A program made the translations under genes and the position numbers. From the NCBI GenBank assembly GCA_965222235.1, contig OZ244939.1:400107-464106 (forward strand): a stretch of 64,000 bases of DNA, written 5' to 3'. The notes beneath the pieces are model-generated. The model did no database searches. It saw only the letters and a list, made by a program, of their open reading frames with translations, and had not been told where the DNA came from. The DNA comes from Minisyncoccota bacterium (GTDB lineage: Bacteria > Patescibacteriota > Minisyncoccia > Phycocordibacterales > JABAAK01). Positions within the stretch are counted from its first letter, which is position 1. Every line of letters starts with the position of its first letter. Positions 12,364-31,084 of this stretch are shown here, piece after piece.

Positions 12364-12369
12364 TTTAGG

Positions 12370-12492: not shown

Positions 12493-12566
12493 GGGTGATT
12501 AGCTCAGTCGGCTAGAGCGCTTCCTTGACGTGGAAGAGGTCACAGGTTCGAGCCCTGTATCGCCCA
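12493..12566 (+). tRNA. tRNA-Val (GAC).
   Basis: gggtgattagctcagtcggctagagcgcttccttGACgtggaagaggtcacaggttcgagccctgtatcgccca; all four arms pair. Confidence 0.85.
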
Positions 12567-12613
12567 CACAAGACATACATGTCACACTGCGTGTGTTACT
12601 ATTAATATTGTTT

Positions 12614-14875: not shown

Positions 14876-15132
14876 CGGGAAAACTTCTGTATAAACTGTT
14901 CCCGGGAAATGCGGCTGCCGTCCGTGTCATAGTAAACAAACACTCCGTCAATTTCCTCAGCAACGAGATCGCCGCTCTCAAGACTGTAGAAATTCGAATA
15001 TCCTTCCACAATATCAAAATCAGCCGGCTGATACGAACGGTCAGGCGCATTGCGGATATAAATAAAAAACAAAATTGCGAGCAGTCCGCAAAGCATGATA
15101 AGAAGACATTGTATGGTTTCTTTACGATTCAT
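14842..15132 (-). CDS. Small membrane-anchored hypothetical protein.
   Basis: Trimmed to MNRKETIQCLLIMLCGLLAILFFIY..., a single N-terminal TM helix. 96 aa. Confidence 0.35.
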   Translation of the reverse strand: MNRKETIQCLLIMLCGLLAILFFIYIRNAPDRSYQPADFDIVEGYSNFYSLESGDLVAEEIDGVFVYYDTDGSRISREQFIQKFSRYFNNPLSHWK

Positions 15133-15174
15133 AGTAAACGGTATCTCATATGATACCACAACCCACGACAAGCG

Positions 15175-15642
15175 TTATGAAACCCCCTCTTCTTTCGCCG
15201 GCACAGTCTTCACTTCATCAGGCTGATCGGATTCATGCTGTGAATCCTCGGATACGGACGCCTGTTCATCCGACGTTTCGGATACGATGGTTGTTCTCCT
15301 GAGTTTCTCGCGAATCTGTTTCTGCGTCTTATCCCGCAGGAAGTAGAGGCGGGCGCGTCTGGTCTTCGTTCTCCGCACTATCTCAATTTTCTCAATCATC
15401 GGAGAGTAGAGCGGAAATATCTTTTCCACCACAATGCCGTCGGAGCCGGCTCTCCGCACGGTGAATGTTGCCCCGGCTTCCGTGCCGTGCTTGCGGGCGA
15501 TAACCACACCCTCAAACACCTGTATACGGGTTTTTTCTTTCTCCACTATCTTCTGATGCACACGAACGGTGTCTCCGGAAGAAATCCGGATATCCCGCCG
15601 ACCTTGAGTGTGCACGGGCGACAGTTGTGTATCGGTAAGCAT
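15175..15642 (-). CDS. rplS: 50S ribosomal protein L19 with an acidic C-terminal extension.
   Basis: The L19 core [31 protein letters not shown]...FTVRR is present. The start was trimmed to MLTDTQL. Confidence 0.85.
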
Positions 15643-15683
15643 AGTGTGTGTATGGTAGCCCACCGCCCGACATTTCGCAAATA

Positions 15684-15716
15684 TAAAAAAGGAGGAGGGG
15701 TGTGTAACCCCTCCTC
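15684..15716 (-). terminator. Rho-independent terminator for the lytic transglycosylase gene.
   Basis: On the minus strand, gaggaggggttacacacccctcctcc is followed by TTTTTTATATTT. Confidence 0.6.
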
Positions 15717-15736
15717 AGTCTCAGTTCTGAACTCCC

Positions 15737-16672
15737 TCAGCTCTGAAACTCCTGAAGGATCTGGTGGACCTTTTCCCGCACTCCGGAAACCTTGCGAAGA
15801 TATTCCAGAGCGCCCGAACTTTCCGCACGCGTCGGACCGGCAAAGTACGCGCCGATCGCGTACTCGAAATTCCGTTGAACACCGAGATCGCTCAGAAGAA
15901 TGCCCATGCCTATCATTGAATGCAGTGGGTCAAACGGGTTCGGGGGATGGTCGCTGCGCCGGCCGAGAAGACCGGACACGCGGTCCTTTTCGGGATTGTA
16001 TTGGTAGACCCAGTTAACAAACTTCGCAACGGCGACCTTGGTGCACCGCCCGAAAGATGCCCTCTGAGACTCTCTGGAGCAGAGACCGTTCCCCCACGCA
16101 ACGTGGTCGTCCTGAAATGTGCGCAGGTGTTTCGCGGTGTTCGGACCGAGAAATCCGTCCACTTTCAGATCCAGCCCGTACACATGGTTCAGAACCGCCT
16201 GCAGAAGTTTCACATTCTGCAGACTCCATCTTACCGACGGGAAATATTCCCGGGACAGCGGTTCAAACTCCATGCCGGTGATGGCTGCCCACATTGATGG
16301 CAGTATCTGCCCGGGTCCCATCGCACTGCCGAAACCGCCGGGCGAGGCCTTAGAGACGCACACCTCCTCCGGGGCATAGCCGAACATCTCGGCTATAACA
16401 ATTAATGGGACAAGATCACGGGAGGATTTGGCGTACACCGCACCCCCCCTGATTCCTTTGAGTTTGCCGAACCTACTCTCGACGATCGAGACCGCCGCGA
16501 GTGTTTCCATGGAAACACCGGTCAGCTCCGCAGCACGTGAGACCGCGTTGATCATTTTTGTTGGTGTGAATGAGGTGCATGTCTCCACCCCGGTTTTTGT
16601 GACGGAGCTGCCGAAAGCGGTCCCGCTCCAAAAACAATACAACAGAAGAAAGACCGCTGTTGACTTTTTCAT
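15737..16672 (-). CDS. Secreted lytic transglycosylase (SLT-like) with a peptidoglycan-binding PG_binding_1 domain.
   Basis: It has a signal peptide MKKSTAVFLLLYCFWSGTAFG and the ES..-type SLT motif SIVESRF. The segment LQAVLNHVYGLDLKVDGFLGPNTAKHLRTFQ is PG_binding_1-like. Confidence 0.6.
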   Translation of the reverse strand: MKKSTAVFLLLYCFWSGTAFGSSVTKTGVETCTSFTPTKMINAVSRAAELTGVSMETLAAVSIVESRFGKLKGIRGGAVYAKSSRDLVPLIVIAEMFGYAPEEVCVSKASPGGFGSAMGPGQILPSMWAAITGMEFEPLSREYFPSVRWSLQNVKLLQAVLNHVYGLDLKVDGFLGPNTAKHLRTFQDDHVAWGNGLCSRESQRASFGRCTKVAVAKFVNWVYQYNPEKDRVSGLLGRRSDHPPNPFDPLHSMIGMGILLSDLGVQRNFEYAIGAYFAGPTRAESSGALEYLRKVSGVREKVHQILQEFQS

Positions 16673-16752
16673 CCCAAACCCCTCCTCTAGATGTTTCCTT
16701 GAGATGTATACACATTATACAATAAAATACCGATTTGTCAAACTTTCTCCTT

Positions 16753-17900
16753 CCCAAGTTCAAACAAATAATAGAACACCTGTCATATACCAAGTAATAC
16801 TGGAGACATATGACAAAAGCAAAGAAAAAGAGACGGGAACCGTTCACCCGTCTGAATATTCATGAACGGAGTAGTATTGAAGTGAGATACTGTGCTGACA
16901 AGAGATCCCTGCGGGAGATAGCGAAAGAGTTGGGCAGGTCACCGGGAACCATACATCGGGAAATAGGGGGAAAACCGAGAAAAGGAGTCGGACGGTACTG
17001 CGCGCTGAGGGCACAGCGGGAAGCAGAGAAAAGGATACACACCCGGGGGAGGAAAGGAGTGCTGACCGACAGAGCACTCCTTGGGTATGTGCGGGAGAAG
17101 ATGGAGGAAGGATGGTCTCCCGAGCAGGTGAGTATTCGTCTTCCCCGGGAGTTTCCGGAGGACACAACCATGCGGGTATCTCATGAGACGATATATACCT
17201 TCATATATGCGCAGATTCACCAAAGCGGACACGGTATCGTGAAACCGGGGTATCTAGACTTACGGTCTCTTCTGCCGAGAAGAAGGAAGAGACGCATACG
17301 GCAAGGAGTGAGAAACACACAGAAAACAGAACGAAGAGCGGCCTTGCCCTCCATAGAGGAGAGACCGGGGATAGAGGGGGTAATCGGTCATTGGGAAGGT
17401 GACACCATGCTCTCAAGGAAAAGCAGCGTTAGGGTAAAGAGTATGAATGAAAAGATGACCGGTCTGGCATTCTTTGAGAAAACAAAAGACGGTACCGCTG
17501 AGTCCTGTGACGCGGCAATCATCAGACGAATGCGCGCTGTCCCTCCGAGATACCGCAAGACCCTCACCCAGGACAGAGGGGCGGAGAATAGGGGGTACCG
17601 CACCGTTGAAAAAGAACTCAGTCTCTCCTGCTACTTCGCCCATCCGTACTGCTCTCATGAAAGAGGATCAAACGAGAACACCAACGGATTGTTCCGTCGG
17701 TGTTTCCCGAAGGGGACTGACTTTGACAAAAGCAATGACCGTGACATTGCCAAGGTTGAGTACCTATTGAATACCCGTCCCAGGAAACGCCTTACTGGTC
17801 TGACCCCTTACGAGGTATTCTACCGCATGACCGGTGTCAATCTCCAGAGGATGGCATATTACAAACTGACAGGTGTTCAATTAGAAGTTTGAATGTAGGC
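16753..17900 (+). mobile_element. IS30-family insertion sequence, copy 1 (1148 bp).
   Basis: It is 100% identical to 29937-31084. Imperfect terminal IRs: TTCAAAC..TAAT(A/T)GAACACCTGTCA. It ends 1 bp from the metG stop codon. Confidence 0.85.
16810..17892 (+). CDS. IS30-family DDE transposase.
   Basis: 360 aa with an N-terminal HTH, the HWEGDTM motif typical of IS30 transposases, and a DDE core. It is identical to 29994-31076. Confidence 0.9.
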   Translation: MTKAKKKRREPFTRLNIHERSSIEVRYCADKRSLREIAKELGRSPGTIHREIGGKPRKGVGRYCALRAQREAEKRIHTRGRKGVLTDRALLGYVREKMEEGWSPEQVSIRLPREFPEDTTMRVSHETIYTFIYAQIHQSGHGIVKPGYLDLRSLLPRRRKRRIRQGVRNTQKTERRAALPSIEERPGIEGVIGHWEGDTMLSRKSSVRVKSMNEKMTGLAFFEKTKDGTAESCDAAIIRRMRAVPPRYRKTLTQDRGAENRGYRTVEKELSLSCYFAHPYCSHERGSNENTNGLFRRCFPKGTDFDKSNDRDIAKVEYLLNTRPRKRLTGLTPYEVFYRMTGVNLQRMAYYKLTGVQLEV

Positions 17901-17901
17901 T

Positions 17902-19611
17902 TTATCCAAGCCCTAGTTTTTCCCGCTGGACCCGGATATCCGCCTCCTCAATTTTGGAAAAAAGCGGCCGAATATTGCCCACCACAATCCGCCCCGGCAG
18001 CGGCCGATACCCCCAGGATTCAGCGGCGGCACCGTCAGAGAAAAAGGAACAGATTTGCTCAGAAGTCCGGGGCAGAAATGGACGGACGACCAGAGCGAGC
18101 GAATAGATAGTTTGAAGAAGGACCGCCACATCCGCCTCAGCTCCGACCGGATCAACCGATATCCGTTTCCAGGGCTCCTGCGCATGTGCGAACCGGTTCC
18201 CGTGTTCCGCAAGCCGCATAATCTCACGGAATGCCTGGCGGAACTGCCCGTTCTCAATACACAAGCCGACCGTGTCAAACACCATCTCCGCGTCGGTAAG
18301 CAGCCGCTCGGCGGCAATATCCGTCGCCTCCGGCAGCGCGGCACCGTCGGGAAAACGTTTCTCGGCAAAGGTGCAGATGCGGTTCACTAAATTGCCGAAT
18401 GTTCCGATGAGCTCTCCGTTGACCAGCTGACCGAACTCAGTCCAGCGAAAATCAATATCCGCCGTCTCGGGACCGTGGGCGGTGAGGATATACCGCAACA
18501 ACTCAGCATCAAAACATTCCAAAAATTCCGGAACCCAGACGGCATGCAGTCTGCTGGTGGAAAACTGTTTCCCCTCCAGGGAAAGATACTCGGAAGCGAA
18601 CACCCTGTCCGGCAGATGATACCCGCCGGAACCGGTCAGTATGGCCGGAAGTATGAGCGTATGAAACGGCACGTTATCCTTCCCGTGTACATAGTAATGC
18701 ACCGCATCATCATCGCACCACCATGCGCGCCATGCATCGGGCGAAGCCTGCTGAGATGCGGAAAGATACCCGAGCACCGCATCAAACCAAACATACAGCC
18801 GCTTGCCTTCGTACCCCTCAAGCGGAACGGGAATGCCCCAGTCGGTGTCCCGGGTAACCGCCCTGTCCAACAGCCCCTGCTTCAGAAAACTTTTTGTAAA
18901 CTGGGCGGCATTAACGCGCCAGGCGCCGCTAACTCGCCCAACCCACTGATCCAGCGTGTCCTGAAACGCACTGAGCCTGAGATAGAAATGTTCTGACTCG
19001 CGAACCTCAAGCGCCCGATCGGCGGACGACACTGAACGGTCAAAAATATTAGGATTGGCCGCGGGTTCAATCAGTGTCAACGGATCAAGCAGGGTGCTGC
19101 ACTCATCACACTGATCGCCGCGGGCGGAAGAATAGCCGCAGTGCGGACAGGTGCCTTCAACAAAACGGTCGGGAAGAAAGCGGTTAAGAAACGGTGAATA
19201 CAGCCCTTTATCCGCTTTGATGTAGAGGTGCCCCTTGCGGTGCAGATCAAGAAACAAACCTTGGACTGTTTTCGCATGCTCAGGGGTTGTTGTTTTGGTG
19301 TACAGATCATAGGTAAAGCCGAGATCTTCAATGAGTGTCTTTTTGAATTCCTTATGATACCGGTCAGCGATAGATGCCGGATCCACCCCCCGCCTAATCG
19401 CTTCAACGGCAATGGGGGTACCGTAACAGTCGCTGCCGGAAACCATCAGCACGGCATCCCCCTTCATGCGGTGATACCGCGCCAACACATCGCCGCCGAT
19501 AAACGCGGCAATGTGTCCGAGATGGAGCGACCCGTTCGCGTACGGCCACGCTACCGCGACAAGAATATGTTTTTTTGGTTCACCCATATATACGGCATAA
19601 TACCGCATCAA
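17902..19611 (-). CDS. metG: Methionyl-tRNA synthetase, catalytic core without the C-terminal tRNA-binding domain.
   Basis: It has HLGH (HIGH-class motif), a zinc-knuckle CPHCGYSSARGDQCDECS, and the KMSKS-region. The probable true start is MGEPKK at about 19587. Confidence 0.9.
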   Translation of the reverse strand: MMRYYAVYMGEPKKHILVAVAWPYANGSLHLGHIAAFIGGDVLARYHRMKGDAVLMVSGSDCYGTPIAVEAIRRGVDPASIADRYHKEFKKTLIEDLGFTYDLYTKTTTPEHAKTVQGLFLDLHRKGHLYIKADKGLYSPFLNRFLPDRFVEGTCPHCGYSSARGDQCDECSTLLDPLTLIEPAANPNIFDRSVSSADRALEVRESEHFYLRLSAFQDTLDQWVGRVSGAWRVNAAQFTKSFLKQGLLDRAVTRDTDWGIPVPLEGYEGKRLYVWFDAVLGYLSASQQASPDAWRAWWCDDDAVHYYVHGKDNVPFHTLILPAILTGSGGYHLPDRVFASEYLSLEGKQFSTSRLHAVWVPEFLECFDAELLRYILTAHGPETADIDFRWTEFGQLVNGELIGTFGNLVNRICTFAEKRFPDGAALPEATDIAAERLLTDAEMVFDTVGLCIENGQFRQAFREIMRLAEHGNRFAHAQEPWKRISVDPVGAEADVAVLLQTIYSLALVVRPFLPRTSEQICSFFSDGAAAESWGYRPLPGRIVVGNIRPLFSKIEEADIRVQREKLGLG

Positions 19612-19625
19612 ACGGCTGTATGCAT

Positions 19626-19973
19626 TTAGGAGAGACGGGAGCCGACCGGAACATCCTGCGGTATCTCAACAACACGCACCTGACCGCCCCCCGAATCATC
19701 TGTGTATGAGGCACAGAGCAGCATGCCGTTGCTCTCAAGGCCGAGCATGGAGCGCGGCTCAAGATTCGCAACAACAACACACCGCACGCCGATCAATTGA
19801 TCCGGCGCATAGTGCTTACTGATGCCGGACAAAACGGTCCGCGGTTCCTCTTCGCCGATGTCTATCGCAAGATGGAGCATCTTATCGGAACCCGGGATAT
19901 GGTCGGCGGATACGACGGAGCCGACGACCAGCATGATCGAAGAAAATTGATCAATGGTAATGCTGCCGCTCAT
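19626..19973 (-). CDS. tRNA-binding domain protein (CsaA/Trbp111-like), probably the detached MetRS C-terminal domain.
   Basis: LHLAIDIGEEEPRTVLSGISKHY...CVVVANLEPRSMLGLESNGMLLCA is an OB-fold tRNA-binding motif. Trimmed to MSGSITIDQF. Confidence 0.6.
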   Translation of the reverse strand: MSGSITIDQFSSIMLVVGSVVSADHIPGSDKMLHLAIDIGEEEPRTVLSGISKHYAPDQLIGVRCVVVANLEPRSMLGLESNGMLLCASYTDDSGGGQVRVVEIPQDVPVGSRLS

Positions 19974-19980
19974 ATATAAA

Positions 19981-20247
19981 CTAACTGCTGTCAGGCCTGA
20001 TTGCCCGCGCCAAAACAGACTTCCTGCGCGATGCCGTCTTGCCGGTGATAACCCCCCGCTTCGCCGCCTTATCAATCGCCTTCTGCGCCAGACGATATTC
20101 CGCGCGCGCGCCGGCGCTGTCGCCCGTGCGGTGCTGCCCTTTCACCTTTTTAATAAGGAGGCGCATTGTGCGGAATCGACGGAGATTAAACACGCGACGT
20201 TTTGCTGAAACACGGATTTCTTTTTTTGCTGATGCGGTGATAGCCAT
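19981..20247 (-). CDS. rpsT: 30S ribosomal protein S20.
   Basis: MAITASAKKEIRVSAKRRVFNLRRFRTMRLLIKK...AIDKAAKRGVI has the S20 signature. The start was trimmed to MAITASAKK. Confidence 0.8.
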   Translation of the reverse strand: MAITASAKKEIRVSAKRRVFNLRRFRTMRLLIKKVKGQHRTGDSAGARAEYRLAQKAIDKAAKRGVITGKTASRRKSVLARAIRPDSS

Positions 20248-20302
20248 ATACACGCACTGTACCGAGATATACCCCAAAACGCAAGCGGAAGTCTTGTCTC
20301 AC

Positions 20303-21664
20303 GCAAAATGATACTGAACAGGGATCGTGATTCTCCTGAGGATGACCCTGAAAACGGAAAAGAAGGGCGTGAGCCCTTCTCTCCGGTCGGTAGTATGGAA
20401 ATGTATGACCATAACCATGCAAACCAACACTATCAATATACAGGACATTACTAACCTTTTGAACGCATCAGAGAACAGAGAGATTCGGAGAAAAGACACA
20501 AAAGAGGAGATATACCGGTGGATACAGGATACCGTGGTGTCCGTGCGGTACCTGAGACTCGGGAAAAAGGAGAAAGGAAAGGTGCTCAGGTATCTCACTG
20601 TCTACAGTGGGTACAGCACTTCACACATCAAACGACTGGTGCGGCAGTATGCGGAAACAGGGTATGTGCGAATGAAAGGGAGAACCCAACCGATGTTTCC
20701 GGTGATCTACACCGCAGGAGATATCAGGACACTGGCAGAGACTATGGATGCCTACGGGCATCAGAACGGGAAGGCCGTCAGAGAAACTCTTCGGGAGATG
20801 TATGCGATATATGGGGACAATCGATTCGTTCGTCTGCGACATATATCACCAGCGCATATCTACCGGCTGAAGAAGAAAGACGTGTTCAGAGCCTACGCCA
20901 GAACCTTCACGAAAACAAGGAGAACAGCGGTGCCAATCGGTGCGCGGAGGAAACCGTACCCTGCGGGAAAACCTGGATATATACGGGTGGATTCGGTGCA
21001 TCAGGGGGACAAAGAAAAGGAGAAGGGTATATATCATCTTAACCTCGTTGACGAGGTGACTCAATGGGAGGTGGTGTGCTGTGTGGAGGTGATCTCTGAG
21101 CAGTTTCTGCTGCCGGCGCTTGAGGAAGCCTTGGGTTCCTTTCCTTTCCGTCTCCTGAACCTTCATTCAGACAACGGGAGTGAGTATATCAATTACACTG
21201 TTGCCCGTCTGTTGGAGAAGCTGCGGGTGACTCAGAGCAAAGGAAGGTCACGACACTGCAATGACAATGCTCTGGTTGAGGGCAAGAATGCCGCGGTGGT
21301 GCGAAAATACATCGGACACGGGCATATTCCCAAGGACTATGCCTCCGCCATTGCTGTGTTCTACCGTGAACACTTCAATGACTTCCTCAACTTTCACCGT
21401 TGTTGTGCCTTTCCTGAGGAAATGACGCTCCCGAACGGGAAGATCAAAAAGATCTACCGGGAGTACAGAACACCGTGTCAGAAACTCCTCTCTCTGCCGG
21501 ATGCCGGACAGTATCTCAAAGAAGAAGTCACGGTCTCCTCCCTTGAAAAGAAGGCAGGAGAGACCTCACACCTTGCCGCCGCGCAGGCAATGCAGCAGGC
21601 AAAACACCGATTATTCACCTGACAACATATGTTCCATGCTATATTGTGTTTCAGTATCATTTAC
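20303..21664 (+). mobile_element. IS element of about 1.36 kb with an rve-type DDE transposase (IS481/IS3-superfamily-like) and 13-14-bp terminal IRs.
   Basis: AAATGATACTGAA at 20304-20317 matches the reverse complement at 21650-21662 (ttcagtatcattt). It carries a single transposase ORF. It lies between the rpsT and ruvA starts. Confidence 0.55.
20327..21622 (+). CDS. DDE integrase/transposase (rve core).
   Basis: RVDSVHQGD ... LHSDNGSEYIN ... NALVEGKN give the D, D and E catalytic residues with retroviral-integrase-like spacing. Confidence 0.75.
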   Translation: MILLRMTLKTEKKGVSPSLRSVVWKCMTITMQTNTINIQDITNLLNASENREIRRKDTKEEIYRWIQDTVVSVRYLRLGKKEKGKVLRYLTVYSGYSTSHIKRLVRQYAETGYVRMKGRTQPMFPVIYTAGDIRTLAETMDAYGHQNGKAVRETLREMYAIYGDNRFVRLRHISPAHIYRLKKKDVFRAYARTFTKTRRTAVPIGARRKPYPAGKPGYIRVDSVHQGDKEKEKGIYHLNLVDEVTQWEVVCCVEVISEQFLLPALEEALGSFPFRLLNLHSDNGSEYINYTVARLLEKLRVTQSKGRSRHCNDNALVEGKNAAVVRKYIGHGHIPKDYASAIAVFYREHFNDFLNFHRCCAFPEEMTLPNGKIKKIYREYRTPCQKLLSLPDAGQYLKEEVTVSSLEKKAGETSHLAAAQAMQQAKHRLFT

Positions 21665-21707
21665 GGATGAGAAAATACTGCGGAGAACACGGTATACTGA
21701 ATATACT

Positions 21708-22289
21708 ATGATCGGGACACTGACCGGAAAAGCGGAAGATGCGGGAAAAGGCATTATTCTTATTAAAACCGACAGCGGTGTCGGATACATCGCCGGCGTT
21801 TCTGCGACGACAAAAAATACTGCCCTGCAGGAAGAGACCTGTACCCTGTTCACCCACACCGTCATACGAAAAGACACTATGGAATTGTTCGGATTCCTTG
21901 AGCAAGAGGAATACTCAGCGTTTCTGCTGCTGCTGACCGTCTCGGGCATCGGACCGAAAAAGGCGCTCGTGGTGACAGAGCGGGTGCCGGTTCCGGCATT
22001 GCTGCAGGCTATTAAAAAAGAAGATGTTGACACCCTGGTTTCGTTCGGTATAACCAAGAAGGAGGCGCAGCGTATCACACTGGAGCTGCAGCGCAAGATA
22101 GAGATGTCTGAAAACGACATACCCGCTGCCGGAGATGTCGTTCCCGCACTGGTGGCGCTGGGGTATGATAAGAAGGAAATAGCCGAGGCGCTGAAAAACA
22201 CGGTATTGAAGGGGAAAACAACAGAAGAACAAATTCAGGAAACACTGCGGGCAATGCGGAACATGACTCTGCAGACATATGGCAAATAA
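21708..22289 (+). CDS. ruvA: Holliday-junction DNA helicase subunit RuvA.
   Basis: Trimmed to MIGTLTGK. It has the helix-hairpin-helix LLLLTVSGIGPKKAL and the C-terminal domain VALGYDKKEIAEAL. Confidence 0.85.
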   Translation: MIGTLTGKAEDAGKGIILIKTDSGVGYIAGVSATTKNTALQEETCTLFTHTVIRKDTMELFGFLEQEEYSAFLLLLTVSGIGPKKALVVTERVPVPALLQAIKKEDVDTLVSFGITKKEAQRITLELQRKIEMSENDIPAAGDVVPALVALGYDKKEIAEALKNTVLKGKTTEEQIQETLRAMRNMTLQTYGK

Positions 22290-22340
22290 TAGCGGAAGCG
22301 CGCACCATTCACAGAAATCTGTATATAATAGCAATGACCC

Positions 22341-23387
22341 ATGGATATAAAATTTCTCATCACCATATTCCTCCTTTTCACACTGGTCGCCGGTATTATC
22401 ATCATCTACCAGGAAGAAATAATGAAGATGGAATTTCTTGCGCGGCTCCAGACAACACCAATTCCGCAGACAGAACAACCGGTCACGTCTGCGCTTCCCA
22501 AACCGTACGCGCCTCCCGTTCCGAGACCGGATGTGCAGACTTTTTTCTATGATAACCGCGACCTGACTTTCGGAGAAGGACAGATCACCGATGTGCGGGC
22601 CAAAGGCATCAAAAAAATTGAACCGGGAAAGATACTCCATGTCATCACAAGCGGTGTCAGTAACTATTACGCCCGGGGGTTTCTTGAAGAAGCGGAGCGA
22701 TTGTATGAGCCGTCGCCACATGCCGGATCAATTGTGTTCCACAACCGTACATCCGGCATAAAAGAATCAGAGCCGGAAAGAGAATATTTTGTTCTTCTGG
22801 TGTCAAGCGCTCTGCCGGAGCCGATTGATATAACGGGGTGGAAAGTGTTTGATAAGAATAAAAAAATATCCTACTCCCTGCCGAAGGGAATAAAGGTGTT
22901 GGGAACCGGAGGAATCCAAAAGGCGGTGCCAATACGGGTTGGGGCCGGAAACACTGTTATCATCTCCTCAGGCAGATCGCCGGTGGGTTCGTCATTCCGA
23001 ATTAATAAATGTTCCGGATACCGATCGCAATTCAAAAACTTTACGCCCACAATTAAAACACAGTGTCCGAAACCGCTGGATGAATTCATATCGTTCGGCT
23101 CTGTGCCGTACACCGATAACAAATGTTTTGACATAGTGAACCGTATGGGAACATGCACAACAGTAACGGACATACCGACCGGTATCTCAGACAAGTGCCA
23201 CGAACTTCTGGAAAATGTAATAACTGAAAGCGGTTGTGTGGGAATACACAGGAACGATTCTGATTTCTTTTCATCTGAGTGGCGCCTTTTTCTCGGATCA
23301 CAAAGGGGTCTCTGGAGAAATGAAGACAATGTGCTGTATCTTCTTGATAAAGAAAGGCGTCTTGTAACAACATTGGTATACAGTTAA
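22341..23387 (+). CDS. Membrane-anchored secreted protein with a lamin-tail-domain (LTD)-like segment.
   Basis: N-terminal TM helix. EYFVLLVSSALPEPIDITGWKVFDKNKKISYSLPKGIKVLGTGGIQKAVPIRVGAGNTVIISSG resembles LTD. The C-terminal part is Cys-rich. Confidence 0.45.
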   Translation: MDIKFLITIFLLFTLVAGIIIIYQEEIMKMEFLARLQTTPIPQTEQPVTSALPKPYAPPVPRPDVQTFFYDNRDLTFGEGQITDVRAKGIKKIEPGKILHVITSGVSNYYARGFLEEAERLYEPSPHAGSIVFHNRTSGIKESEPEREYFVLLVSSALPEPIDITGWKVFDKNKKISYSLPKGIKVLGTGGIQKAVPIRVGAGNTVIISSGRSPVGSSFRINKCSGYRSQFKNFTPTIKTQCPKPLDEFISFGSVPYTDNKCFDIVNRMGTCTTVTDIPTGISDKCHELLENVITESGCVGIHRNDSDFFSSEWRLFLGSQRGLWRNEDNVLYLLDKERRLVTTLVYS

Positions 23388-23414
23388 TGGCTAAGATGCT
23401 ACCATACCCCCAAA

Positions 23415-23487
23415 CCGCCCATAGCTCAGTTGGTAGAGCAACGGCCTTTTAAGCCGGGGGTCCCAGGTTCGAGCCCTGGTGGGCGGA
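23415..23487 (+). tRNA. tRNA-Lys (TTT).
   Basis: ccgcccatagctcagttggtagagcaacggccttTTTaagccgggggtcccaggttcgagccctggtgggcgga. Acceptor ccgccca/tgggcgg, T-arm ccaggttcgagccctgg. The first anticodon-stem pair is mismatched and the 5-prime end is an unusual C1. Confidence 0.7.
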
Positions 23488-24966
23488 CTTTCCAGTACAA
23501 GCAAAGACACATTCACTATCGCTCGTGTGGCTGTCTTGGTCCGCGCGCCCGCAGGGCGCGCGGTAGAGGGTTTTCCACGCGCCGCGGGGCGCAAAGGTCA
23601 CACCGGTGTCGGCGAGTCGGCGGTTCAAGCCAACCTCTTTGAAAAAATCCGCCAAATCGGCAGGGTCGGTGCTATCAGTAACATTTCGCATTGCAGTTGC
23701 TTGCTCAATCACCAAAAGTGCCGGTTCAAGCCACGAATCATCATCGCCCGAGACACTCCGCAGTTTCTCCTTGATATCCATCTTTTTACCAAGTAGGATA
23801 TTTTTCTTGGCAATGTATTCTTCACGGGTGATATCACCAGAAAGAGACATATCAAGAAGATGGTCCATCTGCCCCTCAAACGCCCGCAAATCAGCGCGGA
23901 GTGTCTCGGTGCGACTTACTCCCGCCTGAGCGTCTGCATTGTACAAATCGTAAAGTTCATCTGAAATTCCACCAGCTTCGGCGGGAGTAAGGGAAACTTT
24001 TTGTAGTGCTGAGCGAACCTCCTCGTCAATTCTCTCACTGCGAACATATTTACCCGCACACTTCCCTTTTTTCTTAGTGCAGTGATAGTAGGTATGCCCT
24101 TTTTGAATTGATGAGGTGATGGAACAGCCACAATGCGCGCAGACAAGCATCTGGCGGAACGGATACCGCGCCGGGTCATGCTGCCGCACTTCCCGTCCCC
24201 GCTGTTCCATAATCGCTCGGCACTGATCAAAAAGTTTCTTGGTGATAAGTGGCGTATGCGCACCCTCGTGGGTTTCGCCGCCCCACGCTACCAAACCGTA
24301 ATATATCGGATTGTTAAGTATCCAGTGAACATTGCTCGCCGGAGTAAGATTGCCACGCCTGTTTTTAAATCTGAGAGACCGAAAGGTGAACTTACCGGTG
24401 GCATATTTTTCAAAAAGCGAAACCACGAGGGGTGCATACTCGGGGTCGGGGTCTATAGTATTCGTGTTGCGGTTATTTATATACCCGAAAGGTGCTCGTG
24501 ACGGGTGGATACCCCGCCGCGCCTTATTCCTCATACCACGGCGAACATTCTCGCTGAGGTTGTCTACATAGAGTTTGCTCTGACCGAATGCGAGGGTGAG
24601 GCAGAAAATACCGTGTGGTGTATTTTCAAAAGTGTAAGTCGGAAAACGCAGAGCAGCACCGCGTTGCTCCACCAATTCAACCAGTTTTGCGCCGTCCGTC
24701 ATATTGCGGGCAAGTCGGTCCGGATGCCAGGATAAAATGCCTTCCGCCTCACCCAGGGCGATGCGACCGAGCATCGCCTCAAAAACTTTTCTCCCGGGTT
24801 GCTTGGCGGATTGTTTCTCCGTCAAAACCTCAGTCACACTGACACCATTCTTGCGAGCGAAAGCGCGCAACTCTGCAATCTGATCGGGTATACTCTGCAC
24901 CTGTTTGTCTCTGTCATCAGTGCTTTTGCGAGCATATATAAAAAGTTTTTGCAAGCGTTCGGTCAT
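23449..24966 (-). CDS. Large serine recombinase (resolvase-type catalytic domain, recombinase domain, zinc ribbon).
   Basis: Trimmed to MTERLQKLFIYARKSTDDRDKQVQSIPDQ (catalytic Ser in YARKST). The zinc ribbon is CAHCGCSIT...YYHCTKK...C. The ORF 3-prime end runs 39 bp into tRNA-Lys on the antisense strand. Confidence 0.85.
   Translation of the reverse strand: MTERLQKLFIYARKSTDDRDKQVQSIPDQIAELRAFARKNGVSVTEVLTEKQSAKQPGRKVFEAMLGRIALGEAEGILSWHPDRLARNMTDGAKLVELVEQRGAALRFPTYTFENTPHGIFCLTLAFGQSKLYVDNLSENVRRGMRNKARRGIHPSRAPFGYINNRNTNTIDPDPEYAPLVVSLFEKYATGKFTFRSLRFKNRRGNLTPASNVHWILNNPIYYGLVAWGGETHEGAHTPLITKKLFDQCRAIMEQRGREVRQHDPARYPFRQMLVCAHCGCSITSSIQKGHTYYHCTKKKGKCAGKYVRSERIDEEVRSALQKVSLTPAEAGGISDELYDLYNADAQAGVSRTETLRADLRAFEGQMDHLLDMSLSGDITREEYIAKKNILLGKKMDIKEKLRSVSGDDDSWLEPALLVIEQATAMRNVTDSTDPADLADFFKEVGLNRRLADTGVTFAPRGAWKTLYRAPCGRADQDSHTSDSECVFACTGKSAHQGSNLGPPA
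23488..23629. repeat. 142-bp perfect inverted repeat, left copy. It encodes the last ~49 codons of the recombinase and contains the palindromes ccgcgcgcccgcagggcgcgcgg and gacaccggtgtc.
   Basis: The reverse complement of 25058-25199 is identical by eye. Confidence 0.85.
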
Positions 24967-25057
24967 AGTAAACGAATTGTACCATACCGACCCCGAACAA
25001 AATAAAGTACAAAGCACCGCCCTGCCAAAATAAAAAGTTTTTTAAAAAGTGGATGGT

Positions 25058-25476
25058 CTTGAACCGCCGACTCGCCGACACCGGTGTGACCTTTGCGCCC
25101 CGCGGCGCGTGGAAAACCCTCTACCGCGCGCCCTGCGGGCGCGCGGACCAAGACAGCCACACGAGCGATAGTGAATGTGTCTTTGCTTGTACTGGAAAGT
25201 CCTCTGAACAAGTAGCACTTGAACTCAAAAAACATTTTACCGAAGACACCTCGCACGCTCCACCCGCCCCGTAACTTTAATCCCAAAAGTGCCGCCAGAC
25301 AATCGCTCCGCTTACTACGGGCTCATGCTCGCAGGCTCACACCAGCCCTCCGTGCGCTCCGCTCCCGCGCCAATCACGCCGGCAGATTCTTTTTCAATTC
25401 AGCCCGCCGCCCAACCCCGCGTGCTCGCCGTTGCACCGTGTCGGGTCGGATATGGGAGTGGACGGGTGGTTTCTGA
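25058..25476. repeat. Right inverted copy of the recombinase 3-prime cassette (25058-25199) plus a 277-bp downstream segment (25200-25476). The downstream segment recurs inverted at 31401-31676.
   Basis: The plus-strand ORF 25053-25274 encodes the same C-terminal peptide as the recombinase. The ORFs 25219-25476 and 31403-31657 encode identical 85-aa stretches. Confidence 0.8.
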
Positions 25477-25514
25477 GTGCACAATAAAGACACGACAGCA
25501 CGCGAACAAACAGC

Positions 25515-25620
25515 AAAAGGATCTGCCGGCGTGATGGGGCGGGAGAACTATATGCAATCCGCCATCTTTCCTGCTTGCAAATGCTTGCGGAAAAGGCGGA
25601 TTTCCTTTATCCGACACAGG
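25515..25620 (+). repeat. Roughly 105-bp direct repeat R1 (partner at 26145-26250) with an internal imperfect hairpin and a GCTTGC-N5-GCTTGC direct repeat.
   Basis: The two copies align at about 85% identity. Confidence 0.7.
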
Positions 25621-25647
25621 GTGTCACAAGATGTACAATGGTTTTAT

Positions 25648-26142
25648 ATGACACAAAACAGTAACGGGTCAGACAAGGAAAATCAGGAAAATGCCCGAAA
25701 TAATTATTTGGAGGCAGGAAAGAGCGCAAATCAATTGCTAATTCCCGTGTTGATTGCTGTGCTTGGTCCTACCATCGCATCTCCAGATCTTTTATACCCG
25801 GCCGCACTTATTCTTTTTCTTTCTATAATATCTCTAATTATTCATAAAATGAGACAGATGTGTTTCTTTATGGATGAAAAAAACGGCGGAAAACAATATG
25901 AAGAAAGAGAGAGATTTATCAAAAACATTCCTTGCTTTTTGTTTAGTTTTTATCTGCTCGTCATATTGACTTTTGTATTTCTGTCATATACCATCCTTAC
26001 TATGAATGAAGATCAGAAAGATTTCAAGCCGGAAAGGAGAAATTCTCCGACTCACGAAAGGGATTTTAAACCAAACAAATCGGCACCTAATACCACACCA
26101 CCTACCCCAAGTCCTCAACCCAAGCCGAAAGAAAGTCAATAA
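25648..26142 (+). CDS. Small membrane protein (2-3 TM helices) with a Pro/Thr-rich tail.
   Basis: Trimmed to MTQNSNGSDKENQ. It has hydrophobic helices and AT-rich codon usage typical of the island. Confidence 0.4.
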   Translation: MTQNSNGSDKENQENARNNYLEAGKSANQLLIPVLIAVLGPTIASPDLLYPAALILFLSIISLIIHKMRQMCFFMDEKNGGKQYEERERFIKNIPCFLFSFYLLVILTFVFLSYTILTMNEDQKDFKPERRNSPTHERDFKPNKSAPNTTPPTPSPQPKPKESQ

Positions 26143-26144
26143 GG

Positions 26145-26250
26145 GGAAAAGAATCTGCTGGTGTGATAGCAAGGGAGAACTATGCGTAATCCGCCATCTT
26201 TCCCGCTTGCAGACGCTTGCGGAAAGGGCAGATTTCCTTGTCCTGCTTGA
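26145..26250 (+). repeat. Direct repeat R2, the partner of R1.
   Basis: See R1. Confidence 0.7.
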
Positions 26251-26312
26251 TTTTATATTTATATATGTGAATAACTAAAATTGAAAGATTTTTTACTAGT
26301 ATTATGATAGTA

Positions 26313-27256
26313 ATGAGTGAGAAACATAAGGTTGTTTCGTTGTTTTCTGGTTGTGGGGGTCTTGATTTAGGTATTTTGGGAGGATTCACGGTATTCAAGA
26401 AAAAATACCAAAAACGAAAATTTGATATTGTCTGGGCAAATGATTTTGACAAGAATGCTTGTGAAACATTTAAAAAAATATAGGAGATCACATTGTTTGT
26501 GGGGATATAGCTAAACTTCTGCAAAATAAAAAAGAATTTTTAAAATTTGACAATATAGATGTGGTGATAGGCGGTTTTCCATGCCAAGATTTTAGTATCG
26601 CAGGAAAAAGAAAGGGAACACAAACAAAAAGAGGTAAACTATATAAAAGTTTTATTGAGGTTGTTGAATTATTACAACCAAAAATTTTTTTAGCCGAGAA
26701 TGTGAAAGGGATTTTATCTATAAAAAGCGGTTCTGTGATTAAAAAAATTATATCTGATTTTGAAAAAATCGGTTACAAGGTCGAGTATAAGTTGTTTCAT
26801 GTCGCTGATTTCGGAATTCCCCAAAATAGGGAGAGGGTTTTAATGGTCGGAGTTAAAAACGGAGCTGGAAATTTTATTTTTCCAAAACCAAAAACTAAAA
26901 AGAGGCTCTCAGTTGGTCAAGTAATACAAGATTTAGAACACTTACCGGAAGGTGCTATTCACAATCACTTTTGGAGTAAAGCAAGAAAGAATAGTGGACA
27001 GGGAAATACTCGTATTAATAAAAATAAAATTGCTCCGACAATGCGCGCCGAGCATCACGGAAATATAGAATACCATTGGAATAAGAGGAGGAGGTTGTCC
27101 GCAAGAGAGGCTGCAAGGATTCAATCGTTCCCTGATAACTTTATTTTTTACCCATCAACTTCCCAAGCATACAGGCAAATTGGAAACGCTGTTCCACCAG
27201 TGATGGGTTGGCATATGGCGAAAGCGATGGAGAATTTTTTTGAGAGGTCTCTATGA
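26313..27256 (+). pseudogene. DNA (cytosine-5)-methyltransferase (Dcm-type) interrupted by a -1 frameshift in an A7 tract at 26471-26477.
   Basis: The N-terminal ORF MSEKHKVVSLFSGCGGLDLG carries motif I and stops at TAG at 26478-26480. Motif IV GGFPCQDFS, motif VI ENV and motif X QIGNAVPP continue in the +1 frame (track ORF 26561-27256). One extra A restores a single ORF of about 314 aa. Confidence 0.75.
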
Positions 27257-27921
27257 TTTATGCGACAGAAAAGAACGCAACAGAAAAAGATTTTCTCTCC
27301 CTACTTGAAGAATCAAAAAACCTTCTTTTAAAAAATATAGCCACTAACAAAAATTATCAACCATTAGATTTTGAAACCTTTGTTTATGAGACGATGCGCA
27401 ATGTGGCAAAAGAAACAGTATTTGAGGGAACTATTGAACGAACTGGAAAATTTGGCTTTCCTGATGTTTTGGCAAATAGATACTTTGGGGTTGAAGTAAA
27501 GATGACAAAACAAGATAAGTGGACATCAATTGGAAACAGCATATTTGAAACATCCAGAGTTGATGATGTGGAAAGAATATTTATTCTCTTTGGAAAATTT
27601 GGCGGTAATTTTGATGCGCGTTATAAGGCATATCAAGATTGTTTACCATCAATTAAAGTGACACACTCCCCCAGATATGTTATTGACATGGAATTATCGG
27701 TCAACGAATCAATATTTGAAAAAATAGGAACTGATTATGAATCTTTCAGAAAAGATGAAAACAAGGTTCATTTAATTAAGACATATTACAAAAAGCAATT
27801 AAAAGATGGAGAGGAATTATGGTGGATGGATGAATCTCAAGAAAAAAGTGTTGCGCCAATTATTCGCTCATTTCAAAATCTTGAAGAAAAAGAAAAGAGG
27901 GTTTTGTTGTTGAGAGTGTGA
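27253..27921 (+). CDS. Candidate type II restriction endonuclease (PD-(D/E)xK).
   Basis: FGFPDVLANRYFGVEVKMTK gives D..E-x-K. The start overlaps the methyltransferase stop (ATGA). It has the island's low GC. Confidence 0.45.
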   Translation: MIYATEKNATEKDFLSLLEESKNLLLKNIATNKNYQPLDFETFVYETMRNVAKETVFEGTIERTGKFGFPDVLANRYFGVEVKMTKQDKWTSIGNSIFETSRVDDVERIFILFGKFGGNFDARYKAYQDCLPSIKVTHSPRYVIDMELSVNESIFEKIGTDYESFRKDENKVHLIKTYYKKQLKDGEELWWMDESQEKSVAPIIRSFQNLEEKEKRVLLLRV

Positions 27922-28055
27922 TTTTATTTCCAGAAATTTTTGGCAGTAGCAGATTAAAATTTGAACGGGCGGCAATTTATCTGGTCACTGAATACAATAC
28001 TGTTTGCTCTAACCTGAGAGATATTTTTACTGCGGGCGGGTAAGAGGATGTTAAT

Positions 28056-28319
28056 ATGGCAAAGGAAAGATATTGTGTTCCACATATTTACTCTGAAATG
28101 CATAAGAGGGCGAAAATAATAGAAGAAAGAATAAAAGAAATGAATAGTGAAACTCTTTTATATTATTGGCGCATTGGTCATCTAAGTAAGGATAGGGTAT
28201 CTCAATGGAAACTCCTTTTAGAAAAAAATACAAAGTCATCAATTTCCTCCGAGCGGATTAAAGATAAACCGCAAAAGATATCAATAACAGATATTTTTGA
28301 AAGTGGTTTAAATATTTAA
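28056..28319 (+). CDS. Hypothetical 87-aa protein.
   Basis: ORF between the REase candidate and vsr; no recognisable family. Confidence 0.3.
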   Translation: MAKERYCVPHIYSEMHKRAKIIEERIKEMNSETLLYYWRIGHLSKDRVSQWKLLLEKNTKSSISSERIKDKPQKISITDIFESGLNI

Positions 28320-28321
28320 AT

Positions 28322-28750
28322 ATGGCGGATAAATATACGAAAGAACAGAGATACATTATGATGTCGTCTGTTAAAAGTAGAAATAACAAAAGCACAGAAC
28401 TTGTTTTTATCTCTTTGCTCCGCACAAATAAAATAACAGGATGGCGAAGACATTATCCGATAGAGGGAACGCCTGATTTTGTTTTTCCAAAAGAAAAGAT
28501 CGCAGTATTCATTGATGGTTGTTTTTGGCATAAGTGTCCGAAGTGTTACAGAAGGCCGAAATCAAATAAAGCGTATTGGGACCAAAAAGTGGAAGACAAT
28601 CAAAGAAGAGACGCAGCAAAGAGAAGGTCCTTGCGCAAACAGGGGTGGCATGTTGTTCGCATCTGGGAACATGAATTAAGCGGGAATAACAGATCTATAA
28701 TTAAAAGGCTTCAGAAAATATTTCCGGCACATTATGATTCTATCGCTTGA
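28322..28750 (+). CDS. vsr: Very-short-patch repair endonuclease.
   Basis: It has FIDGCFWHKCPKCY and TPDFVFPKEKIAVF, the Vsr catalytic and Zn motifs. 142 aa. Confidence 0.85.
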   Translation: MADKYTKEQRYIMMSSVKSRNNKSTELVFISLLRTNKITGWRRHYPIEGTPDFVFPKEKIAVFIDGCFWHKCPKCYRRPKSNKAYWDQKVEDNQRRDAAKRRSLRKQGWHVVRIWEHELSGNNRSIIKRLQKIFPAHYDSIA

Positions 28751-29883
28751 TCATTAAAAATGCGCAGCAAATCTTTTATTCCTTTTGCAATCAAACCTTC
28801 ATCAACAGATTTTTCTTCCTCCGGGTGAGCGAACTCATGTCGTAACTTTGTGACATATGTTATATCATTCCCTGAAGCATCTTTTTCATCAGCGAGCAGT
28901 GGCTTACCTTCAGTATTATTCTTACCCGCCAAACGCTCTGAATCAAATTTGTCATATGAATTAATACCGCTCTTAATTTTAAAATGTTCGTACAACTCAA
29001 GGAAGTAAGATTCACTCAGCTGATTAAACACAAAATAATTTATCTCCGAATGAGACCTATACCCTAACACGGACCAAGAATTATCCATATGTTTTAGTGT
29101 GGTGGACTTGGTGTTCTGATCACGGGAAACCTCGTATATTTTATCATCTCTGTTCAACCTCACAAAATCCGGATCATGTGTTGTTATCGCCACTTTCACA
29201 TCAACACCGCTTCCATCTTCTTTTTTGAGCAGTTTCTTAATCATCGTGTTCAGGCTCTTTTTCCACTCCGGGTGCAGATACGCTTCTGGCTCTTCTATAA
29301 GTAGTAGTATTTTTTTGTTACCACCACTGGCGTAAATTTTTTTGTAGTATAAAATAAACGCTATAGACATTAATCTCTGAGAACCCTGCCCTATCGAATC
29401 TAAGTCAATCTCATTATCCTTCTCACGATATTGGTCAAGCGCTTTCACTCCAATTAATTTTCTCACATCATCAGGACCAAAATCAGAACCCATAGATATA
29501 ATGACCTTTTTATCCTCAACACCGCTGTCCGATAAAATTTTGTTTATCTCGTCTTCGGCTTTCTTTTTCTCCCCACTTTTATCAAACTTGCTGATTAAAT
29601 CCGACAAAATAGTTTCATCCACAATCTCATTCAATATCGGGACAACAGTTTTTGAAAATTCGCTTCCTTTTTGAGATGTTGAACATTCAGTCCTCGGATC
29701 AATTTGATCTGACCTGATATAAATAACCTCACACTCTGGGTCAACTTCTTTTTTGTAGTTTTCATGAATATGACACAAAATATTTGATTTCCCTGCATTA
29801 TTTTTTCCAGCAAAAACAGTATAATCAGCGAGTTCAAACTCAATTTTGTCAGTTATGCTTTTGTAGTTCTCTATTGAAATCAT
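28732..29883 (-). CDS. AAA_21/ABC-type ATPase of the OLD / AbiEii / PARIS-AriA / Septu-PtuA class, with no partner gene.
   Basis: It has the Walker A FAGKNNAGKSN, a Q-loop/signature-like SIGQGSQRLMSIAF, the Walker B LLLIEEPEAYLHP and an H-loop ITTHDP. 383 aa. Its start is 54 bp from the end of IS30 copy 2. Confidence 0.7.
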   Translation of the reverse strand: MISIENYKSITDKIEFELADYTVFAGKNNAGKSNILCHIHENYKKEVDPECEVIYIRSDQIDPRTECSTSQKGSEFSKTVVPILNEIVDETILSDLISKFDKSGEKKKAEDEINKILSDSGVEDKKVIISMGSDFGPDDVRKLIGVKALDQYREKDNEIDLDSIGQGSQRLMSIAFILYYKKIYASGGNKKILLLIEEPEAYLHPEWKKSLNTMIKKLLKKEDGSGVDVKVAITTHDPDFVRLNRDDKIYEVSRDQNTKSTTLKHMDNSWSVLGYRSHSEINYFVFNQLSESYFLELYEHFKIKSGINSYDKFDSERLAGKNNTEGKPLLADEKDASGNDITYVTKLRHEFAHPEEEKSVDEGLIAKGIKDLLRIFNDQAIES

Positions 29884-29936
29884 AACTGCATTCTGCCAAA
29901 ATACACCACATTGAGCAAGATGACAATATGATGCGC

Positions 29937-31084
29937 CCCAAGTTCAAACAAATAATAGAACACCTGTCATATACCAAGTAATACTGGAGACATATGACAA
30001 AAGCAAAGAAAAAGAGACGGGAACCGTTCACCCGTCTGAATATTCATGAACGGAGTAGTATTGAAGTGAGATACTGTGCTGACAAGAGATCCCTGCGGGA
30101 GATAGCGAAAGAGTTGGGCAGGTCACCGGGAACCATACATCGGGAAATAGGGGGAAAACCGAGAAAAGGAGTCGGACGGTACTGCGCGCTGAGGGCACAG
30201 CGGGAAGCAGAGAAAAGGATACACACCCGGGGGAGGAAAGGAGTGCTGACCGACAGAGCACTCCTTGGGTATGTGCGGGAGAAGATGGAGGAAGGATGGT
30301 CTCCCGAGCAGGTGAGTATTCGTCTTCCCCGGGAGTTTCCGGAGGACACAACCATGCGGGTATCTCATGAGACGATATATACCTTCATATATGCGCAGAT
30401 TCACCAAAGCGGACACGGTATCGTGAAACCGGGGTATCTAGACTTACGGTCTCTTCTGCCGAGAAGAAGGAAGAGACGCATACGGCAAGGAGTGAGAAAC
30501 ACACAGAAAACAGAACGAAGAGCGGCCTTGCCCTCCATAGAGGAGAGACCGGGGATAGAGGGGGTAATCGGTCATTGGGAAGGTGACACCATGCTCTCAA
30601 GGAAAAGCAGCGTTAGGGTAAAGAGTATGAATGAAAAGATGACCGGTCTGGCATTCTTTGAGAAAACAAAAGACGGTACCGCTGAGTCCTGTGACGCGGC
30701 AATCATCAGACGAATGCGCGCTGTCCCTCCGAGATACCGCAAGACCCTCACCCAGGACAGAGGGGCGGAGAATAGGGGGTACCGCACCGTTGAAAAAGAA
30801 CTCAGTCTCTCCTGCTACTTCGCCCATCCGTACTGCTCTCATGAAAGAGGATCAAACGAGAACACCAACGGATTGTTCCGTCGGTGTTTCCCGAAGGGGA
30901 CTGACTTTGACAAAAGCAATGACCGTGACATTGCCAAGGTTGAGTACCTATTGAATACCCGTCCCAGGAAACGCCTTACTGGTCTGACCCCTTACGAGGT
31001 ATTCTACCGCATGACCGGTGTCAATCTCCAGAGGATGGCATATTACAAACTGACAGGTGTTCAATTAGAAGTTTGAATGTAGGC
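29937..31084 (+). mobile_element. IS30-family insertion sequence, copy 2, identical to copy 1.
   Basis: It aligns base-for-base with 16753-17900 at an offset of 13184. Confidence 0.85.
29994..31076 (+). CDS. IS30-family DDE transposase, copy 2.
   Basis: Its 360-aa sequence is identical to copy 1. Confidence 0.9.
   Translation: MTKAKKKRREPFTRLNIHERSSIEVRYCADKRSLREIAKELGRSPGTIHREIGGKPRKGVGRYCALRAQREAEKRIHTRGRKGVLTDRALLGYVREKMEEGWSPEQVSIRLPREFPEDTTMRVSHETIYTFIYAQIHQSGHGIVKPGYLDLRSLLPRRRKRRIRQGVRNTQKTERRAALPSIEERPGIEGVIGHWEGDTMLSRKSSVRVKSMNEKMTGLAFFEKTKDGTAESCDAAIIRRMRAVPPRYRKTLTQDRGAENRGYRTVEKELSLSCYFAHPYCSHERGSNENTNGLFRRCFPKGTDFDKSNDRDIAKVEYLLNTRPRKRLTGLTPYEVFYRMTGVNLQRMAYYKLTGVQLEV

Follow-up and report, generated by a model that had tools for sequence, protein, structure and literature searches.

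Two Identical Insertion Sequences in Direct Orientation

We analyzed a stretch of 64,000 nucleotides (hereafter the window) of contig OZ244939.1, GenBank assembly GCA_965222235.1, which carries two copies of an insertion sequence (IS) of the IS30 family in direct orientation, bracketing 12 kb of DNA. The host of the IS is probably a bacterium of the Candidate Phyla Radiation (CPR)/Patescibacteria with a very small genome. Each copy has a left and a right terminal inverted repeat (IRL and IRR), a single transposase open reading frame (ORF) at element positions 58–1140, and a short target duplication on either side. The corresponding features are as follows:

16750–16752: left target-site duplication of copy 1, CTT (flank comparison)
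16753–17899, plus strand: IS30-family insertion sequence, copy 1, 1147 bp (identical to copy 2; ends set by the ungapped IRL/IRR register and the 3-bp flanking duplications)
16753–16785, plus strand: IRL of copy 1, CCCAAGTTCAAACAAATAATAGAACACCTGTCA (IRL/IRR alignment)
16810–17892, plus strand: transposase gene of copy 1, 360 amino acids (aa), with a GGAG Shine-Dalgarno sequence 5 nt upstream (NF033563, HTH_38, DDE alignment)
17867–17899, minus strand: IRR of copy 1, overlapping the transposase stop codon (IRL/IRR alignment)
17900–17902: right target-site duplication of copy 1, CTT, which ends at the third base of the metG stop codon (flank comparison)
29934–29936: left target-site duplication of copy 2, CGC (flank comparison)
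29937–31083, plus strand: IS30-family insertion sequence, copy 2, 1147 bp (identical to copy 1; spanned with both flanks by contig L001, described below)
29994–31076, plus strand: transposase gene of copy 2, 360 aa (identical to copy 1)
31084–31086: right target-site duplication of copy 2, CGC (flank comparison)

Base-by-base extension showed that 16753–17900 and 29937–31084 are identical over exactly 1148 bp, with mismatches starting at the first base beyond both ends. A comparison of the window against itself by blastn agreed with this extent, and detected nothing besides the two copies that resembles the IS element. The start-to-start spacing is 13,184 bp, and chance cannot account for an identical 1.1-kb repeat. 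An earlier inspection of the letters alone (hereafter the sequence-only reading) had reported this base-for-base identity over 1148 bp, which our analysis confirmed, together with an element of 1148 bp encoding a 360-aa transposase, of which the transposase stands and the length does not. With the element end at 17899, IRL and IRR align ungapped with 26 matches in 33 positions and share CC...GG tips, whereas with the end at 17900 the register is lost and only 9 of 33 positions match. Because the extra identical base is the C that opens both target duplications, the element measures 1147 bp rather than 1148 bp.

Each of the two copies carries a duplication of its own (CTT/CTT and CGC/CGC). The chance of a random 3-bp flank match in the window is p ~0.018 per site and ~3e-4 for both. 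The outer flanks of the pair differ, CTT on the left of copy 1 and CGC on the right of copy 2, and no outer duplication is shared. The sequence-only reading had correctly noted the missing shared duplication, but it overlooked the duplication at each copy and gave the left flank of copy 1 as "ttc", where the actual triplet is CTT. The predicted empty sites are TTTGTCAAACTTTCTCCTTTATCCAAGCCCTAG for copy 1 (site 1) and GATGACAATATGATGCGCCACATGCGACAGACGG for copy 2 (site 2).

The tip motifs, AAGTTCAA in IRL and TTGAATGTA in IRR, recur in related elements from other metagenomes, and the IRL motif is kept in five of these (L085–L087, L091, and L092). A profile scan of metagenome contigs for the transposase clade returned mostly relatives of 33–45% identity. 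At single-copy relative loci, motif-defined tips gave no consistent duplication, and the tips of single copies cannot be fixed.

Both inverted repeats contain an outward-facing TTGAAY hexamer 5 nt from the tip. In IS30, abutted inverted repeats form a junction promoter. For the present element, the predicted junction of abutted ends (IRR-NNN-IRL) is ...TTGAATGTAGG NNN CCCAAGTTCAAAC..., and no convincing −10 box of an IS30-style junction promoter was seen across it when read by eye under Escherichia coli consensus rules.

Transposase and Family Membership

The transposase was assigned to the IS30 family by the curated NCBIfam model NF033563 (transpos_IS30, IS30 family transposase), which it passed with 219.2 bits against a cutoff of 80, residues 47–326 aligning to profile positions 2–267 of 267. 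A helix-turn-helix (HTH) domain was detected at the N-terminus by Pfam HTH_38 (43.9 bits against a cutoff of 27, residues 14–52). In an alignment of 22 sequences, comprising the transposase and 21 homologues of 53–65% identity, D198 (in HWEGD), D255, and E289 were invariant, with spacings of 57 and 34 residues. Judging from this conservation, we take these residues as the putative DDE triad; the D-57-D-34-E spacing agrees with the pattern of the IS30 family. Together, the family model, the HTH, the DDE triad, a length within ~1–1.25 kb, the single ORF, the imperfect inverted repeats, and the short (2–3 bp) duplication are all features of IS30-type elements, and the family assignment of the sequence-only reading was borne out.

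The exact 360-aa sequence was found in only three sources, one of which is a 641,294-bp contig. Among 5.8 billion proteins, the next-best matches were unnamed metagenomic transposases with 62–65% identity, and annotated IS30-family transposases in the plasmid collection were at most ~37% identical. These values indicate a new IS within a known family. It is an ordinary mobile element, a new member of that family and no new type of system. A PDB sequence search returned no solved relative for the transposase.

Insertion Sites and the Bracketed Interval

The genes at and between the two insertion sites were compared with those of the closest available genome, the Candidatus Pacebacteria chromosome OY282360.1 (hereafter L005), whose metG is 65% identical. 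The relevant features are as follows:

15737–16672, minus strand: gene for a 311-aa peptidoglycan-binding, SLT-like protein, left neighbor of copy 1 (profile matches, L005 homologue)
16714–16741, minus strand: sigma-70 site of perfect consensus, TTGACA-16-TATAAT, preceding the 311-aa gene and separated by 8 nt from the left CTT of copy 1
17902–19587, minus strand: metG, short-form methionyl-tRNA synthetase, right neighbor of copy 1 (TIGR00398, 463 bits against a cutoff of 336; start codon inferred)
19626–19973, minus strand: stand-alone tRNA-binding-domain ORF, 115 aa (PF01588, 95.8 bits)
19981–20247, minus strand: rpsT, ribosomal protein S20 (PF01649, 63.1 bits)
20306–21662, plus strand: putative ISNCY-like element with a 431-aa rve-domain ORF (20327–21622) and 13-nt perfect terminal inverted repeats (profile matches, repeats)
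21708–22289, plus strand: ruvA (TIGR00084, 139.7 bits against a cutoff of 85)
23415–23488, plus strand: tRNA-Lys(UUU), island boundary (tRNA prediction)
23449–25017, minus strand: large serine recombinase gene, flanked by inverted repeats 23485–23647 and 25039–25202 (profile match, repeats)
25475–29936: low-GC (36%) cargo comprising an apparently fragmented dcm, a 222-aa ORF, vsr, and an AAA_15/AAA_21 ATPase gene (28732–29883, minus strand) (profile matches, GC)

Copy 1 is inserted at the boundary between metG and the 311-aa gene. The metG stop codon (TAA, the complement of 17902–17904) overlaps the right CTT by one base, and 80 bp separate the IS from the start of the 311-aa gene at 16672. 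The TTGACA-16-TATAAT site, which lies 41 nt upstream of this gene, was left intact beside the copy, and in-silico removal of the IS leaves a pre-insertion gap of only 12 nt between the metG stop and the −35 box. In L005, a TTGACT-17-TATTAT promoter-like site lies 23 nt after the metG stop. This matching site indicates that the promoter position is conserved and that copy 1 occupies the only dispensable gap. The label "lytic transglycosylase", given to the 311-aa protein by the sequence-only reading, holds in part: the window protein scores below threshold for both SLT_2 (13 bits) and PG_binding_1 (22.9 bits), whereas its L005 homologue passes SLT_2 (30.5 bits against 24.3). No solved relative of the 311-aa protein was retrieved by a PDB sequence search.

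Copy 2 is located within a tRNA-Lys-linked island of serine recombinase and restriction-modification (R-M) genes, not in core sequence. Its left end lies 53 bp from the start of the AAA ATPase gene (29883) and 10 nt from a weaker TTGTCA-17-TATTTT site. The positions relative to the metG stop, the 311-aa gene, and the ATPase gene thus agree with those reported earlier. We also considered whether copy 2 disrupts a gene, since its in-silico excision joins the ATPase in frame to a 198-aa ORF, giving 591 aa. This candidate was rejected: the upstream part is an Arg/Pro-rich translation of a repeat with no family match, the Walker A motif of the ATPase stands at its usual N-terminal place after its own ATG, and separate gene calls give an ATPase of 380–383 aa. 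The read-through is a translation artefact of the repeat, and consequently neither IS insertion breaks an ORF.

The genes metG, rpsT, tRNA-Lys, and ruvA in the interval are probably indispensable. In line with the earlier claim that essential genes are enclosed, metG, rpsT, and ruvA pass curated thresholds, and tRNA-Lys also lies inside. A 348-aa gene without assigned function is enclosed as well. Approximately half of the 12-kb interval is accessory DNA.

Support from Other Assemblies and from Synteny

Two short-read contigs of the Logan resource from run ERR13605531 reproduce the left flanks of the copies at 100% identity, L004 corresponding to window positions 16782..12538 and L003 to 29966..26173. 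Both stop exactly 30 nt (k−1) into the left end of the IS, as expected of a k=31 graph at a repeat, and the IS alone forms a separate 1126-bp contig, L002. These observations identify the IS as an assembly-break point, as the sequence-only reading had anticipated. Since L003 and L004 have different flanks, two distinct left junctions are present in the reads. Furthermore, copy 2 is traversed in full by the ENA contig L001 (4355 bp, ERZ25067264), which extends 1.2 kb and 2 kb into the flanks and departs from the window only by three inserted bases.

L002 matches both window copies except for one synonymous change (T for A) at 17355 (= 30539), which suggests a further IS copy or a strain variant in that sample.

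The gene order in L005 is holA ... serine recombinase, 348-aa gene, ruvA, tRNA-binding ORF, metG, SLT-like genes, and this syntenic region contains neither the IS30 nor the rve element. This IS-free conservation identifies the sequence flanking copy 1 on either side, together with the core portion of the interval, as ancestral chromosome.

Independent Insertions and Alternative Explanations

We conclude, with a probability of about 0.9, that one apparently intact 1147-bp IS30-family element transposed into two separate intergenic sites of a small chromosome. Given a separate duplication at each copy and outer flanks that differ, the pair represents two independent insertions and not a composite that moved as a unit. 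The same conclusion had been drawn by the sequence-only reading, and it is strengthened by the synteny of the interior core genes with the IS-free L005. Recombination between the copies would have resulted in hybrid flanks; therefore, none has taken place so far.

Several points weigh against this conclusion. The duplication length is ambiguous, since the flanks can be read as 3 bp around a 1147-bp element or as 2 bp (TT and GC) around one of 1148 bp. Duplications of 3 bp are also found in the IS30 family, and both lengths are compatible with what is known of it; 3 bp is most likely here. Typical members of the family generate 2-bp duplications (PMC5821093). Under the same tip definition, L086 and L087, two copies of a related IS with 99.2% identity, show no clean duplication. 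Pfam rve (PF00665) is absent from the Pfam matches of the transposase at E <= 0.001, so that support for the catalytic domain comes from the NCBIfam model and the alignment. Outside the window, nothing confirms the right junction of copy 1 (IS-metG), and L001 and the Logan runs may derive from samples that are not independent of the window source. Additionally, no true empty-site allele was found for either copy, and scans with the IRL pattern gave no exact match in the genome, metagenome, and viral collections.

Related look-ups were also negative. The exact IRL had no match in the genome collection (185,579 species representatives), and a degenerate version had none in the metagenome or viral contig collections. 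Exact-protein look-ups for metG (two start codons), the tRNA-binding ORF, and rpsT returned nothing on record.

The identity of the two copies suggests recent transposition, although gene conversion could maintain identity too. That the insertions are old and have been kept alike by gene conversion is, in our judgment, unlikely. Nearby repeats are also close to 100% (145 nt at 100%; a 365-nt repeat with 20 mismatches, apparently in one sub-segment only), and L005 keeps the equivalent arms at 99%, which suggests active homogenization in these genomes. However, the IS is missing from this nearest relative, its IRL has no exact match among the species representatives, and its intact ORF, together with the inverted repeats and duplications, is consistent with a young and active element. 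Gene conversion would alter only the timing and not the identity of the element.

An assembly artefact, in which a single IS copy was placed twice by the assembler, is very improbable. The copies are 100% identical, repeats of such size do break short-read assemblies, and the Logan contigs fragment at the IS. Nevertheless, L003 and L004 join two distinct unique flanks to the first 30 nt of the IS, the separate contig L001 fully crosses copy 2, and misplacement would not produce a matching 3-bp duplication at each copy. The two left junctions in the short-read assembly and the spanning of copy 2 with both flanks contradict the possibility, named by the sequence-only reading as its refuting case, that only one copy exists.

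Least credible is a composite transposon (IS-12 kb-IS) inserted as one unit, for although IS30-family elements form directly repeated composites such as Tn6330 (PMC5821093) and two direct IS copies here bracket a segment that is partly low-GC accessory DNA, the outer flanks (CTT and CGC) have no duplication in common while a matching triplet adjoins each IS, the SLT-like gene and metG are adjacent in L005, where the order metG ... ruvA ... serine recombinase also occurs, and no second occurrence of the IRL pattern appeared in the genome, metagenome, and viral collections.

Comparison with Known IS30-Family Systems

The two independent insertions, each with its own duplication, correspond to the ancestral, not-yet-mobilized state of Tn6330 (PMC5821093). 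In the ISApl1/Tn6330 ancestor, as in the window, two direct IS30-family copies flank a chromosomal segment, with short duplications of their own and unrelated outer flanks (PMC5821093). The ISApl1 element likewise encodes a single HTH and DDE transposase and has terminal inverted repeats. Unlike ISApl1, the window transposase is distant, with at most ~37% identity to any annotated IS30-family transposase in the plasmid collection, and its duplication is most likely 3 bp instead of 2 bp. Tn6330 carries a 2.6-kb resistance cassette, whereas 12 kb of mostly core, probably essential genes is bracketed here, and the window pair, in contrast to Tn6330, bears no sign of ever having moved as a unit.

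IS30 of Escherichia coli shares with the present element the NF033563 family, a length of ~1.1–1.2 kb, and a single element-filling ORF with an N-terminal HTH and a C-terminal DDE domain, but the sequence identity of the window transposase to it is low. The IST3091-type IS30-like elements of Acidithiobacillus plasmids are among the best annotated matches (35% identity over 93% of the protein), yet they fall far outside the 62–65% clade of unnamed metagenomic transposases that contains the nearest relatives of the window IS.

Proposed Mechanism of Insertion

By analogy with IS30 and ISApl1, the N-terminal HTH of the transposase would bind the inverted repeats, and the DDE domain (D198, D255, E289) may generate a copied-out circular or dimer intermediate in which the two repeats are abutted. 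This intermediate would then integrate at a staggered cut, duplicating 3 bp of the target. Copy 1 entered the 12 nt that separated the metG stop from the −35 box of the neighboring promoter, and copy 2 a site 53 bp upstream of the AAA ATPase gene, inside the R-M island. Neither insertion breaks a gene or the recognizable promoter, and both may be neutral to the host.

Recombination between the copies would delete metG, rpsT, tRNA-Lys, and ruvA, and such a deletion should therefore be lethal or counter-selected. A tandem duplication, or later mobilization as a composite, is possible but has not yet happened.

In both copies, the left end lies 8–11 nt upstream of a −35-like hexamer (TTGACA and TTGTCA, respectively) of a divergently transcribed gene (16714–16752 and 29898–29936). 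The related IS copies L086 and L087 (near 1389–1444) also precede divergent genes, whose starts are 55 and 101 nt away. In this small sample, the promoter-proximal placement may come from preferential targeting or from survivorship in a densely coding genome. A stronger proposal is that this IS30 lineage selects its targets relative to promoters, and that the pair is then a nascent composite able to duplicate or export translation and repair genes together with a defense island; we regard it as quite doubtful. If true, promoter targeting would let the IS spread in a gene-dense 0.64-Mb genome without killing its host.

Other Features of the Interval and the Window

The rve element between rpsT and ruvA is probably a third mobile element within the bracketed interval. 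Its 431-aa ORF shares 26% identity with annotated ISNCY-family transposases and 46% with an "integrase" from a Polaromonas plasmid, and it scores below the NCBIfam IS3 and IS481 cutoffs. The element is missing from the syntenic L005, and the Logan contig L090 begins at 21650, the first base of its right arm.

The MetG protein is a short form that matches positions 4–542 of the 676-position PRK00133 profile. The tRNA-binding domain, usually the C-terminus of MetG, is here encoded by the separate 115-aa ORF directly upstream of metG, and the same arrangement is found in L005 (9603–11719; window 17902–19973).

The serine recombinase gene ends antisense inside tRNA-Lys, and the inverted repeats flanking it are built from the 3' end of the gene itself (145 nt at 100%). 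The arm 25039–25202 continues into a 272-nt segment (25203–25474), which recurs in inverted orientation at 31402–31673, so that nested inverted repeats bracket the R-M/ATPase cargo and IS copy 2 (region 23415–31766). A third, diverged (78%) copy of the recombinase 3' end is located at 31674–31766. Logan contigs starting at 31671 and 31679 were considered as evidence of recombination at the island junction; this candidate was rejected, as the starts are explained by the first mismatch between the repeat copies at 31701. The same nested layout occurs in L005 (419–7527), with arms of 199 nt at 99% and 119 nt at 92%, where it encloses a different R-M cargo (N6_N4 methylase and DUF6996/6997). The near-perfect arms within each genome, despite 21% protein divergence between the genomes, suggest that active inversion or gene conversion may operate on them.

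Within the cargo, the dcm cytosine methylase gene (26400–27256) appears split: its 231-aa ORF aligns only from position 64 of the Pfam profile onward, and the N-terminal piece lies in a separate upstream call of 56 aa. The unannotated 222-aa ORF beside dcm and vsr may encode a restriction enzyme. On the other side of copy 2, the 12-mer ACGGATTAAAAA occurs once in the window (31099–31110), 15 nt to the right of the IS. It is also present in L086 and L087 (2561–2576), in a 16-nt extension past IRR that is shared by both copies of this related IS of 70% identity, and could be either the remnant of a related IS terminus or a target motif.

Outside the interval, tRNA-Ser and tRNA-Glu are separated by a 1.8-kb insert with a low GC content of 40% (window 10479–12441). 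It encodes a 258-aa HSDR_N/MmeI_N-like ORF and is flanked by 62-nt inverted repeats (10795–10856 and 12308–12369, 94%); in L005 (16956–17244), the two tRNA genes are only 127 nt apart. A 156-nt stretch of the insert (12016–12166) is 69% similar to 31168–31319, beside copy 2. Three tandem 156-nt units, 92–100% identical, are found in a 1183-aa minus-strand ORF (59176–59643).

Implications

The two copies leave the knowledge of IS30-family elements unchanged. In the near-complete 641-kb genome of this uncultured bacterium, the IS is a proven assembly break point, where misassembly or structural polymorphism is also possible. The pair forms direct repeats around indispensable genes, the same configuration as the documented precursor of the ISApl1/mcr-1 composite transposon. 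It also illustrates how an IS30-type element, apparently active, survives in a very reduced genome, confined to few-nucleotide gaps between genes and promoters.

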